64,000 nt of DNA from Rhodospirillaceae bacterium (GCA_016794165.1 JAEUKV010000043.1:26-64025); one strand, 5' to 3'; shown: positions 48,025-51,736, counted from the stretch's first letter. Numbers and translations are program-made. Notes: generated from the letters alone by a model not told the origin.

Positions 48025-48375
48025 TTAGAGACTATGCCGCTTGCGCCAATCGACCGGATAGAGCGCATAGCAGACGACCGCCTTCTCGCCCTCATAGGTG
48101 ATCGGCGTCCTTTCCGGCAGCCAGATGATGTCGCCGGGGCCGGCCTCGATCACCCCGCCCGGGTGCCGGAGGCGGAACCAGCCATCGAGCACGATGATCA
48201 TCTCGTCGTAGAGTACCGTCCACTCGATCGCGCAGCCGTCGAATTTGGCGATGCCGACGCCCATGGAATGCGACATGTCGGGACCGACCAGGCGGCTGAT
48301 CTCGGCCTTGCCCGGCGGTCCGCCATAGGGTTCGAAAATCATCTCGGATCGCTTGAAGTGCTTCACCTCGGACAT
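48025..48375 (-). CDS. EutQ-like cupin
   Basis: IEWTVLYDE..IVL.G, GPGDIIWLP, YALYP.DW; GGGAG RBS. Confidence 0.75.
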   Translation of the reverse strand: MSEVKHFKRSEMIFEPYGGPPGKAEISRLVGPDMSHSMGVGIAKFDGCAIEWTVLYDEMIIVLDGWFRLRHPGGVIEAGPGDIIWLPERTPITYEGEKAVVCYALYPVDWRKRHSL

Positions 48376-48391
48376 GGCAATTCTCCCTGTC

Positions 48392-49345
48392 TCAGGACGG
48401 TTGCGCGGCATTGAGCGCGGGATCGGATTTCCTGGCCTTCAGCAATTGCAGTTCCGACATCACCACGCCGGCGATAACCAGGACGCCGCCCATCAGTTGC
48501 GGCCAGCTCGGCGCGGTGCCGGCCAAGGCGAAGATGCCGATCGCCACCACCGGCACCAGGTTGAGATAGAGGCTGGCCACCACCACGCCGGTGCGCTTGA
48601 CGCCGAAATTCCACAGATAGACACCCAACGCTACCAGCACGATGGTCACCCAGGCCAGGATCAGCACGTCGTCGGCCGATGCCGGCAGCGCTGGCGGAAA
48701 CGGCGCCGCGCCTGCCACGCCGGCGACAAGATAGATCACTGCCAGGGCCACGCCGCCGGTTGTCATGGTGCTGGTGGTGATGCGCAGTTGCGACCAGCCG
48801 CGGCACCAGCGCTGCGCCGCGGTCGAGTACCAGGACCAGCAGGCGAAGGCCAGCACGATCAGGAGTTCGCCGCCGCGAAAGTCGAAACCGCGACCCGCCT
48901 CGTTCAAGCGCACCGTGGCGATGGCGCAGCCGAGGATGGCGAGCACGATGGCCGGCAGCATGCGTCGGTTGATCGGGATGCCGAAGATGACCCGATCGAC
49001 GATCGCCGCCACCGCCGGCGAAGTCGCACTGAGGATCGCCGCCGTCACCGGATGGCAGAAATGGATGCCCACGGTAAAGAGTGCCGAATAGCAGCCGATG
49101 CCAATCACGCCGAGGAGCCAAATGCGCGGGCCGCTTACCGGTCCCGAGCCATCGGCCAGGACAACCGGCCGGCGCCTTTCCAGCAGCAGGAGAGTTGTCC
49201 ACATCAGCGGAACGGCACCAATGTAGCGGATGGCGGCCAGAAAATAGGGATCCCAGGTCCCCAAAAGATGTGCCACGGCCGGCACCATGGTGCCCCAGAG
49301 CAGTGCCAGAAGCAGGAGGCCGAAATAGCCGATCCATTGAGTCAT
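48392..49345 (-). CDS. DMT/EamA transporter (paralog A)
   Basis: About 10 TM; LALLWG, WDPYFLAAIR, YLNLVP. Confidence 0.88.
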   Translation of the reverse strand: MTQWIGYFGLLLLALLWGTMVPAVAHLLGTWDPYFLAAIRYIGAVPLMWTTLLLLERRRPVVLADGSGPVSGPRIWLLGVIGIGCYSALFTVGIHFCHPVTAAILSATSPAVAAIVDRVIFGIPINRRMLPAIVLAILGCAIATVRLNEAGRGFDFRGGELLIVLAFACWSWYSTAAQRWCRGWSQLRITTSTMTTGGVALAVIYLVAGVAGAAPFPPALPASADDVLILAWVTIVLVALGVYLWNFGVKRTGVVVASLYLNLVPVVAIGIFALAGTAPSWPQLMGGVLVIAGVVMSELQLLKARKSDPALNAAQPS

Positions 49346-49466
49346 GATCTTGAAGCAATCCTGGCGGAGAAAGAGGCTGCGGTGGCGCCAACTATGGCTC
49401 GACACTGTGCTAAAGCTTGCTTATCTTCGTCAAGGTCGCGGTCAATGACGACAGACTGCGACCTTA

Positions 49467-49592
49467 CGACCGGCTGGGGGAGAGCCCCGGCACTTCTGCA
49501 AGACCTGATACTTCGACCACCGGGGGAGATCCCTGGATCAGCCGACATCGCAACGACAGCTATCCCAGGCGACCATTGGGGAAGACCCCCAA
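49467..49592 (+). other. Three tandem hairpin repeats in the speB leader (candidate structured RNA or operator array)
   Basis: CGACC-(1-2 nt)-YYGGGG-RAGAN-CCCYRR at 49467, 49514 and 49570. Confidence 0.6.
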
Positions 49593-49620
49593 GTGAGCAA
49601 ACCCAGGAACGGACGACATC

Positions 49621-50604
49621 ATGGCCGACAACCAGCAAGACGACAGCGAGATCAAGATCGACGGCGCCATCGCGCGCAAATCGCCCTATGGCCTCGCCCT
49701 CGAACCGACCTTCGCCGGCGTGCTTTCCTTCATGCGGCGCAATTACAGCAAGGATCTGACCGGCGCCGATCTGGTCATCAGCGGCGTGCCGCTCGATCTT
49801 GCGACCACGCATCGGCCAGGCGCGCGCCTCGGCCCGCAGGGCATCCGCCTCGCCTCCGCCGAGGTCGCGTCGCTGAAGCCCTATCCCTGGGGCATCGATC
49901 CGTTCGAAAAACTCTCGGTCATCGATTTCGGCGACTGCTACCTCGACGTTCACAATCCGATGACGATCCACGACGCCATCGTCGACCATGCGCGGCACAT
50001 CCTGAAATCCGGCGCCCGTATGCTGACCTTCGGTGGCGACCACTATGTCACCTACCCGCTGCTCAAGGCGCATGTCGAGAAGTTCGGCAAGCCGCTTTCG
50101 CTCATTCACTTCGACGCCCATTGCGATACCTGGGCCGACGACACGCCGGATTCGCTCAACCACGGCACCATGTTCTACAAGGCCGTGAAGGACGGTCTGA
50201 TCGACCCCAGGCATTCCGTCCAGATCGGCATCCGCACCTGGAACGACGATTTCATGGGGATCAACATCCTCGATGCGCAATGGGTCCACAGCCATGGACC
50301 CCAGGCGGTCATCAAGGAGGTCAACCGCATCGTCGGCGAGCGACCGGCCTATTTCACCTTCGACATCGATTGCCTGGATCCGGCCTTTGCCCCGGGGACC
50401 GGCACCCCGGTTTCCGGCGGACTTTCCAGCGCCCAGGCACTGGAAATCGTGCGTGGCTTCACCGACCTCGACTTGGTCGGCATGGACGTGGTCGAAGTGG
50501 CGCCGCCCTTCGATCAAAGTCAGATCACCGCGCTTGCCGCGGCGCATCTCGCCTGCGATCTCATCTGCCTCTTCGCCAAACGCAAGGCCGCGGGCAAGGT
50601 CTGA
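49621..50604 (+). CDS. speB: Agmatinase / ureohydrolase
   Basis: GGDHYVT, HFDAHCD, NHGT, FDIDCLDPAFAPGTGTP, VEVAP. Confidence 0.9.
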   Translation: MADNQQDDSEIKIDGAIARKSPYGLALEPTFAGVLSFMRRNYSKDLTGADLVISGVPLDLATTHRPGARLGPQGIRLASAEVASLKPYPWGIDPFEKLSVIDFGDCYLDVHNPMTIHDAIVDHARHILKSGARMLTFGGDHYVTYPLLKAHVEKFGKPLSLIHFDAHCDTWADDTPDSLNHGTMFYKAVKDGLIDPRHSVQIGIRTWNDDFMGINILDAQWVHSHGPQAVIKEVNRIVGERPAYFTFDIDCLDPAFAPGTGTPVSGGLSSAQALEIVRGFTDLDLVGMDVVEVAPPFDQSQITALAAAHLACDLICLFAKRKAAGKV

Positions 50605-50608
50605 TCCG

Positions 50609-51529
50609 CTACAAGGGCCGCACGACGCGCCGCGTGGCCAGGATGCGCCACTCCGAATAGACGATGCCCGCCAGAACCAGTACACCGCCCAGCAGTTGCT
50701 GGGCGGTGGGCTCGACCCCCTGCATCAGCACCAGGATCAGGATGGCGACGCAGGGTGTCAGGTTGATATAGAGCGAGGCCGTCACCACGCCCACGGCGCG
50801 CACACCCGCGTTCCACAGCACGACCCCCAACACCATTACCGTGACGACGTACCAGACCAGGCTGAAGAGCTCGATCCCTTGCTGCGGCGGCGGCGGTGGA
50901 AAGACGACGTACCCGCCCAGCGCCAAGCCTGCGTAGATCACGCACATCGCCGTGCCGGAGGTTGCCATGGTGGCGAAGGTGATACGGACCTGCGACCAGT
51001 CCTGACACCAGCGCTGCGCGACCGTCGAATACCAGCACCAGCAGATTATCGAGCAGAACACCAGCAACTCGCCACCACCCAGCGCCACCCCACCCCTGGC
51101 TTCCGGGTCGACGGAGGCGAGCGCACAGCCGGCGACGCTGGCGAGGATGCCCGGCACCATCAGCCGGTTGAACGGCAGGCGGAAGAAAACGCGGTCGGTC
51201 ACCGCGGCGACGGCCGGGGCGGCGGCGGTGATGATCGCGGCCAGGATGGGGTCGCTGAACTGGATGCCGACGGTATAGAGAAGCGCAAAGCCACCGTTGC
51301 CGACGACACCGAAGAACCAGACCCGCCACAGCGGCATCGGCGTGGGCGCGGGGCGCTTGCGGTCCGTCCACAGCATCAGCAGATAGAGCAGCGGCACCGC
51401 CCCCAGGGAGCGCACGGCGACCAGGAAATAGGGATCCCAGCGCTCCAGCTGGTATTTGGTGAGCGGGATCATGCCGCCCCAGATCAGAGCCACCAGCAGT
51501 AGACCCGCGATTCCCGTCCAGCGCGACAT
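50609..51529 (-). CDS. DMT/EamA transporter (paralog B)
   Basis: LLVALIWG, WDPYFLVAVR, YINLTP; start estimated at ATG 51529. Confidence 0.88.
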   Translation of the reverse strand: MSRWTGIAGLLLVALIWGGMIPLTKYQLERWDPYFLVAVRSLGAVPLLYLLMLWTDRKRPAPTPMPLWRVWFFGVVGNGGFALLYTVGIQFSDPILAAIITAAAPAVAAVTDRVFFRLPFNRLMVPGILASVAGCALASVDPEARGGVALGGGELLVFCSIICWCWYSTVAQRWCQDWSQVRITFATMATSGTAMCVIYAGLALGGYVVFPPPPPQQGIELFSLVWYVVTVMVLGVVLWNAGVRAVGVVTASLYINLTPCVAILILVLMQGVEPTAQQLLGGVLVLAGIVYSEWRILATRRVVRPL

Positions 51530-51736
51530 GTAACCGATCCCCGTGTGAACGCGCCCTGCGAGAAACCGGGCCGCGCACTCTCTCAGAGCGCTCACCGGCC
51601 CGTCAATCGCCCGCAGGCGCATGCCGCTGCCGCATGCCGCGCATGACCTCGGCCGGATTGACAGGACCGGACGCAAGCTCGACATTCCCTAACCAACCGC
51701 GACACCGGTCATGCATCAGCTCACGGAGTAGCCACC

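Follow-up and report, generated by a model that had tools for sequence, protein, structure and literature searches.

We analyzed a 64,000-nt stretch of DNA, referred to here as the window, from a bacterium of a Dongia-like genus; among named relatives, an uncultured Dongia sp. MAG matches it best. An array of three hairpins sits in a 275-nt intergenic space of the window, between a divergent EamA/DMT transporter gene on the minus strand and an agmatinase gene on the plus strand. The gene order is MoaA, a hypothetical gene, NAD kinase, FGase, an ArgE-like deacylase, a EutQ-like cupin, EamA-1, the leader with the array, agmatinase, EamA-2 and a DAO-type oxidoreductase, and synteny around the agmatinase leader was kept in all five relatives compared, to the extent of their contigs. 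The features of the locus, by position in the window, are as follows.

48025-48411, minus strand: EutQ-like cupin gene, co-oriented with the EamA transporter gene (Pfam EutQ, 2.4e-13).
48392-49345, minus strand: EamA/DMT transporter gene, divergent, in an operon with the EutQ-like cupin gene (Pfam EamA, 1.4e-29).
49399-49427, plus strand: sigma-70-like agmatinase promoter from a promoter scan, with -35 TCGACA at 49399-49404, a 17-nt spacer and -10 TATCTT at 49422-49427; predicted TSS at about 49432-49436.
49412-49423, no strand assigned: block AAAGCTTGCTTA in the promoter spacer, containing the inverted repeat AAGC-TT-GCTT; near-invariant in 10 of 11 leaders and replaced in genome G020.
49432-49465, plus strand: stem-loop at the predicted transcript 5' end, AAGGTCGCGGTC / GACTGCGACCTT, with a 12-bp stem and one mismatch (inverted repeat I1).
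49467-49490, plus strand: unit 1, CGACC-GG-CTGGGG[GAGAG]CCCCGG, made up of CGACC (49467-49471), GG, CTGGGG (49474-49479), GAGAG (49480-49484) and CCCCGG (49485-49490); second stem pair a U-G wobble; covariance model score 32.3 bits.
49514-49536, plus strand: unit 2, CGACC-A-CCGGGG[GAGAT]CCCTGG, made up of CGACC (49514-49518), A, CCGGGG (49520-49525), GAGAT (49526-49530) and CCCTGG (49531-49536); third stem pair a G-U wobble; 32.9 bits.
49564-49569, plus strand: upstream CCCAGG box, which abuts the 5' side of the last unit; CCCAGG or CCTAGG in 10 of 11 leaders.
49570-49592, plus strand: unit 3, the last and most conserved, CGACC-A-TTGGGG[AAGAC]CCCCAA, made up of CGACC (49570-49574), A, TTGGGG (49576-49581), AAGAC (49582-49586) and CCCCAA (49587-49592); 39.5 bits.
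49602-49609, plus strand: downstream CCCAGGAA box with a Shine-Dalgarno-like AGGA, 12 nt before the ATG; found in all unit-bearing leaders and in genome G014.
49621-50604, plus strand: agmatinase gene, a SpeB-type ureohydrolase and the gene behind the leader (NCBIfam NF002564, 4.6e-139; Pfam Arginase, 2e-89).

The solved structures nearest to the agmatinase were agmatinase 4dz4 (4.6e-162) and E. coli SpeB 7lol (1.2e-90), while guanidinobutyrase and guanidinopropionase structures matched far more weakly (~1e-58 to 1e-61) and guanidine hydrolases were also much more distant. By these similarities, the enzyme downstream of the array is a predicted SpeB-type agmatinase. Agmatinase stands at the arginine-to-putrescine branch point, and to our knowledge essentially nothing is known of its post-transcriptional control in alphaproteobacteria. 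The start of the divergent transporter gene, an ATG at 49345, was picked by alignment with relatives. A second, paralogous EamA/DMT gene lies on the other side of agmatinase (50609-51685, minus strand); the two transporters are ~41-48% identical and are arranged in the same way in the relatives. They may serve agmatine import or putrescine export. We found no gene for a transcription factor or known RNA-binding protein within ~12 kb on either side of the array.

The first-pass annotation had described three tandem hairpins sharing a CGACC lead-in and an RAGAN loop, and the sequence reads exactly in this way. The full pattern, CGACC-N1-3-YYGGGGRAGANCCC, was matched 3 times in the window against an expectation of 0.00 from 100 shuffles, and the core pattern, GGGGRAGANCCC, 3 times against an expectation of 0.08. 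Within the 3.74-Mb, 98.7%-complete assembly, both patterns were confined to the array locus. A relaxed search of the same genome, which asked for GACC, an RAGAN loop and a stem of 5 bp or more, returned 17 hits including the three units, compared with 13 in the reversed-sequence control, which is no excess. We rejected a dispersed repeat of the REP or MITE type, because scattered copies are absent and the relaxed motif does not exceed the control. That the motif is no dispersed repeat is further seen in the strict pattern, found nowhere else in this genome and at one locus per genome in the relatives.

The units are spaced irregularly, with start-to-start distances of 45-72 nt, and the linkers between successive hairpins, read from the leader sequences, measure 28-55 nt. 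Direct repeats in the array (D1-D4) show that it originated by duplication. The sequence CCCAGGAACGGACGACATC before the ATG is a diverged copy of CCCTGGATCAGCCGACATC after hairpin 2 (repeat D2), a relation which shows that the array grew by tandem duplication.

The promoter scan found no other promoter-like site in 49300-49700. The same promoter was found at the identical aligned position in G020 and G016, while the -10 of G001, TAAGGT, fell one match below the scan threshold. Across 11 leaders, the -35 hexamer and the T, A and T of the -10 (TAnnnT) were invariant. With a conserved promoter-like site upstream of them, the units fall into a predicted 5' untranslated region of ~188 nt, the TSS being itself predicted from the promoter. 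The placement of the array in the agmatinase mRNA leader, as first proposed, thus agrees with the position of the predicted promoter. The AAAGCTTGCTTA block in the spacer is more conserved than a spacer requires, and a transcription factor that controls the divergent promoters may use it as a DNA operator.

The predicted TSS coincides with the start of the 5'-terminal stem-loop, which has a folding energy of -20.1 kcal/mol and a z-score of -4.3 relative to shuffles. Relatives carry a hairpin in the corresponding 5' place, of different sequence and of variable strength, with z-scores from -5.6 to +0.5. In every case some 10 nt separate the last module from the CCCAGGAA box downstream of it. Two CCYAGG boxes (49564-49569 and 49602-49607) flank the last unit, the second of them bearing the AGGA.

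We examined base pairing in 21 distinct units, drawn from 12 leader sequences, 11 of them from genomes and one from a metagenome contig. Of the cells of the 6-bp stem, 99.2% were paired. Changes on both sides were seen at the outer three of the six stem pairs (C-G/U-A, U-A/C-G and G-C/A-U), and the exceptions to Watson-Crick pairing consisted of five G-U or U-G wobbles and a single mismatch, C-A. None of 500 shuffles reached the observed covariation score, and shifted registers lost the pairing. Compensatory changes were also seen between orthologous units, where U-A occurred in 7 and C-G in 3 at one pair, and A-U in 8 and G-C in 2 at another; orthologues of unit 3 in other genomes, for example, read TTAGGG...CCCTAA, a compensatory change from G-C to A-U.

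The unpaired parts of the unit were held constant. GACC and the AGA of the loop were invariant in 21/21 units; the C that precedes GACC in the window is often A, G or T in the relatives, so that the invariant lead-in is GACC. The loop reads G/A-AGA-N, mostly GAGAN, with A at position 1 in one unit and C, G or U, never A, at position 5. Where the last loop letter is C, a seventh base pair can form, which leaves an AGA triloop. The functional module, as these alignments define it, consists of a single-stranded GACC, a spacer of 1-2 nt, a 6-bp G/C-rich helix that tolerates sequence change provided pairing is kept, and a loop with an invariant AGA.

The units also have a strand. GACC and AGA always lie on the agmatinase sense strand, and ACGAC occurs 27 times in 14 leaders compared with 0 for its complement. 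The five wobbles pair on the plus strand only, and reading the opposite strand would reverse the ratio of wobbles to mismatches (five G-U to one C-A). Because it is the complementarity of the half-sites and not their letters that is kept, together with an asymmetric centre, the units are best read as RNA hairpins of the plus strand. The comparisons therefore indicate that they are selectively maintained sense-strand RNA stem-loops, as the first-pass annotation had suggested from the varying stems and the constant lead-in and loop of the window; the stems covary in the relatives as well. The hairpins were present in nearly all predicted folds of the leader, and the leader as a whole was no more stable than shuffles (z = 0.08).

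In two leaders, those of metagenome contig L118 (M118, ~1465-1505) and of G010 (L085), 12-nt ACGACCNCAATG tandem repeats stand just before the first hairpin, and ACGACC boxes number 3 in L118 and 2 in G010. GACC boxes have thus multiplied there without hairpins.

To obtain a neutral yardstick we used 125 four-fold degenerate sites of the agmatinase gene in 13 orthologous loci. Pairwise identity at these sites was 0.45-0.78 (mean ~0.57) and 5.6% of the columns were invariant, so the sites are close to saturation. Of the 46 columns that run from the AGG preceding the last unit to the CCCAGGAA box inclusive, 32 were invariant in 11 sequences (P ~1e-29); linkers between units were free to vary in sequence and length. 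Set against near-saturated four-fold sites, the mostly invariant last unit and Shine-Dalgarno box show strong purifying selection on the element, and it is this selection that keeps the array in its subclade.

All 24 genomes of the genus have an agmatinase orthologue. Thirteen of them form a subclade with agmatinases at least 88% identical, and units were found in 11 of these 13, always in the orthologous intergenic space between EamA and agmatinase. Besides the window genome, the element was present, in 1-3 copies, in 10 other genomes of the genus and in 3 metagenome contigs, again in the orthologous space. One unit was found in G008, two in 7 genomes, three in the window and in G006, and two plus a degenerate third in G020. 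The two remaining members of the subclade have lost the units. G018 retains the promoter and part of the 5' leader with the 5' hairpin; in G014 (L145), the upstream region is rearranged and only the CCCAGGAAGAG box (AAACCCAGGAAGAG) is left. The array is thus dispensable, as two lineages have lost it with the agmatinase gene kept. In G018 (L142, ~1400-1500) a remnant of the 5' half of a unit, CCAGGGGAGCAG / GAGACACCAGGGGAGCAG, has left GGGGAG at a distance of 9 nt from the ATG, where it is an apparent Shine-Dalgarno sequence.

The other eleven genomes of the genus, a sister clade with 70-77% identical agmatinase, have leaders unrelated to the array. When 83 genomes of the family were searched with the motif as a regular expression, the 59 from other genera gave just single chance-level matches in coding or terminator sequence. 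The covariance model of the unit, run on 301 genomes of the class (a sample that covers 253 genera), had no match in the 298 from outside the genus, and the element was not found in the regions upstream of 79 other agmatinase homologues. In a metagenome collection, a two-unit expression matched 18 loci, of which 15 were unrelated tandem repeats and 3 lay at the Dongia-like agmatinase locus. By these searches the element appears restricted to one subclade of one Dongia-like genus.

We looked for a structure with which the hairpins might compete. It had been proposed that CCTGG in hairpin 2 can pair alternatively with CCAGG at the ribosome-binding site. This pairing is possible in the window, but as a switch it is not conserved, since G006, the closest three-unit relative, reads CCCCGG at this place and G020 and G008 lack such an element. 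We rejected two further pairings. CUGGG of the first unit and CCCAG of the Shine-Dalgarno box could pair in 10 of 13 leaders and are energetically no match for the hairpin; the long-range helices that RNAalifold drew from the full alignment were rejected because their bases lie inside the promoter. RNAalifold also paired CC/GG of the upstream CCYAGG box with GG/CC of the downstream box, a helix that would shut in the last hairpin and cover the Shine-Dalgarno sequence. As both boxes are near-invariant and the helix is weak, the pairing comes without covariation support and is put forward here as a hypothesis. No conserved competing fold or expression platform was found in whole-leader folds or alignments, and no terminator-like site in the scan of 49300-49700.

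Judged by eye on the alignments, a K-turn, a loop E, a uORF, a sigma-54 promoter and a G-quadruplex do not fit, the uORF being limited to G010, M118 and G005. There, a short reading frame begins just before the first unit, at AUG (G010, L118) or UUG (G005, L083), and is read through the hairpin to a stop, which in G010 is the UAG of CAUUAG and in G005 and L118 that of the CCUAGG box. This frame is absent from the other species and probably fortuitous.

To compare the array with catalogued RNAs, we ran Infernal cmscan against Rfam 15 with permissive filters on the window (E<=10) and on 7 relatives (E<=1). No relevant family was found and no mini-ykkC; the hits were noise only, mir-512 and isrG in the window and the snoRNA sR60 in one relative. 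The claim that the hairpins belong to no known RNA family and are not guanidine-II is supported by this search.

Guanidine-II hairpins come close in kind. They are short, cooperative and tandem, they dimerize by Watson-Crick pairing between loops, and arrays of more than two of them exist (PMC12335538). The units of the window resemble guanidine-II (mini-ykkC, RF01068) in their short tandem GC-rich hairpins, conserved small loop, covarying stems and variable linker, and likewise in their place in 5' leaders, near the ribosome-binding site, of genes for the metabolism or export of guanidino compounds. The guanidine-II loop reads ACGR, and its C and G pair with those of the partner loop. The loops of the array, in contrast, read RAGAN (or AGA closed by G-C) and contain no self-complementary dinucleotide; two RAGAN loops lack Watson-Crick complementarity, so a loop-loop dimer of the guanidine-II type cannot form. 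All of its hairpins carry the invariant 5' GACC that guanidine-II lacks, and the array is found in 1-3 copies in one subclade of a genus, whereas guanidine-II spans many phyla.

Three protein-bound systems were considered as well. Target RNAs of the ANTAR proteins (AmiR/NasR/EutV-type) share with the array tandem small hairpins, loop purines and a place in the leaders of nitrogen or amine catabolic genes. An ANTAR substrate consists of two hexaloop hairpins (A1, G4) joined by a short linker, the second of which overlaps a terminator, whereas the loops of the array have 5 (or 3) nt, its linkers measure 28-55 nt and it has no terminator. We rejected an ANTAR target on loop size, on the missing terminator and Rfam match, and on distribution: ANTAR proteins do not track the motif, their domain (PF03861) being found in 2 of 24 genomes of the genus (G000 and G016) compared with 11 for the motif. 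The genome of the window, one of these two, has its ANTAR-domain gene outside the window, on contig C117 (22962-23120, minus strand), which is unrelated to the array.

Sites for CsrA/RsmA are similar in presenting multiple purine motifs on hairpins, with CAGGA at the Shine-Dalgarno sequence, flexible spacing and a mechanism of translational repression. The array differs in its invariant letters, which are AGA and GACC and not A(N)GGA, and in having a single target locus per genome. A tblastn search of the 98.7%-complete assembly with E. coli CsrA detected no homologue (best E = 0.88), and with no CsrA in the genome and different invariant letters we rejected a CsrA site.

The lambda-type nut site (boxA and boxB) also places a short single-stranded box 5' of a GC-rich hairpin of 5-7 bp with a purine-rich pentaloop. 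GAGA-N can take a GNRA-like fold, and the boxB pentaloop is bound by an arginine-rich peptide. The array differs in having no phage context, in a GACC box 1-2 nt from the stem, in a loop whose position 5 is never A and whose position 1 is A in one unit, and in its 1-3 repeats directly before a start codon. The likeness to nut sites is a resemblance only. By kind, we class the array with the tandem-hairpin cis-regulatory leaders, as an undescribed, lineage-restricted structured leader motif that stands outside the catalogued families.

The array probably tunes agmatinase expression. Our preferred reading, to which we give a probability of roughly 0.4, is that it is a set of modular binding sites for a trans-acting factor that would control translation of the agmatinase mRNA. 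A copy number of 1-3, a spacing of 28-55 nt and the lack of a conserved competing fold fit modular binding sites better than a single aptamer. In such a mechanism, each module would be the binding site of one trans-acting factor, most likely a dedicated putative RNA-binding protein, and occupancy, above all of the module proximal to the Shine-Dalgarno sequence, would set how often ribosomes initiate on the agmatinase message. This might occur by steric exclusion of the 30S subunit, or the CCYAGG boxes might close round the last hairpin and thereby engage the GG of the Shine-Dalgarno sequence in pairing; the lifetime of the agmatinase mRNA could possibly be affected too. Extra upstream modules would add avidity or cooperativity, and the physiological signal would probably be tied to arginine, agmatine or putrescine status. 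With one target locus per genome, a protein regulator would have to be dedicated to the agmatinase leader. Dedicated regulators are usually encoded beside their target, and our search for a candidate binding protein found none: CsrA is absent, ANTAR does not co-occur and there is no adjacent regulator gene.

The same missing regulator gene fits a small-molecule sensor akin to guanidine-II. Its tandem hairpins would cooperate in binding a cationic metabolite of the pathway (agmatine, arginine, guanidine, putrescine or another polyamine) and would thereby change how accessible the ribosome-binding site is. A ureohydrolase gene between two EamA transporter genes is a fitting place for such a sensor, a single locus per genome is typical of riboswitches, and the invariant unpaired GACC and AGA are candidates for ligand or tertiary contacts. 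There is also the precedent of guanidine-II, whose short tandem GC-rich hairpins form a cooperative aptamer and occur in clusters of more than two (PMC12335538). The RAGAN loops, however, are mutually non-complementary and so could not dimerize as guanidine-II loops do, G008 has a single unit, and there is neither a conserved alternative structure nor a terminator to act as expression platform. The distribution is extremely narrow as well, with unrelated leaders before the orthologues of the sister clade. We consider a sensor of this kind improbable, and its more specific form, slightly more so. That form would be a new minimal class of tandem-hairpin riboswitch, like guanidine-II in architecture but different in chemistry, whose direct ligand would be a polyamine, agmatine or some other cationic or guanidino metabolite and which would control agmatinase translation as the CCYAGG boxes close over the Shine-Dalgarno sequence. 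Unlikely, if less so, is a constitutive structural element with no dedicated factor, which would serve leader folding, protection from ribonucleases, polymerase pausing or a fixed translation efficiency; as a variant, GGGGAGA might be a sequestered Shine-Dalgarno-like decoy or standby sequence. Very stable hairpins that persist in nearly every predicted fold, accompanied by a 5'-terminal stem-loop as is typical of stabilized mRNAs, would suit this role, as would the flexible copy number and tolerated loss, and a Shine-Dalgarno-like GGAG is present in each 5' arm, with the CCAGGGGAGCAG remnant of G018 now an apparent Shine-Dalgarno sequence. What a purely structural role leaves unexplained is why the unpaired GACC and AGA are invariant (21/21) beside stem letters that change freely, and why the fifth loop position alone is free.

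Two explanations would place the function outside the RNA or deny one. The units could be DNA-level operators; they would then either form roadblocks on the downstream side of the agmatinase promoter or serve the divergent transporter promoter from upstream. The region is a divergent intergenic one, the units are hyphenated palindromes as DNA, ACGACC-like boxes recur, partly at 12- or 24-nt spacing, and the promoter spacer holds a further conserved DNA block. A dimeric protein, however, would fix a half-site consensus, and here the outer letters differ between units yet stay complementary; the AGA centre is asymmetric, invariant and found on one strand only, and the five stem G-T pairs of the sense strand are A-C mismatches from the other. 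With irregular spacing of the units (45-72 nt) and no adjacent regulator gene in addition, we regard operators as very doubtful. Still further down, and strongly disfavoured, is the view that the array is a neutral, young by-product of local tandem duplication or slippage. The direct repeats D1-D4, the 12-nt ACGACCNCAATG repeats of G010 and M118 and the losses in G018 and G014 are what such a process would leave behind, but the units are near-identical between species and carry compensatory changes despite saturated synonymous sites.

The RNA module that is repeated in the array is very small and clearly under selection; it needs just four unpaired letters and a 6-bp hairpin whose loop holds AGA. 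Its natural variants with 0, 1, 2 or 3 copies form a ready-made deletion series. A protein partner would mean a new RNA-binding regulator and recognition code, and a metabolite partner the second aptamer assembled from mini-hairpins, after guanidine-II. Confinement to one subclade of a genus limits the general impact unless the mechanism proves new.

The sister clade has a leader hairpin of its own for agmatinase. Leaders L148, L149, L150, L152 and L155 (G002, G013, G015, G004 and G012, respectively) share a conserved hairpin ~60-140 nt upstream of the agmatinase start, reading AAAC/TTATAGCATCCGGCC..CGATCGTCCCGG-N4-6-CCGGG. It is GC-rich and covarying and is followed by GGATCGAGGA at the Shine-Dalgarno sequence. 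This is a second leader hairpin for agmatinase, unrelated to the array, and an upstream CGATCG could pair with GATCG beside the Shine-Dalgarno sequence.
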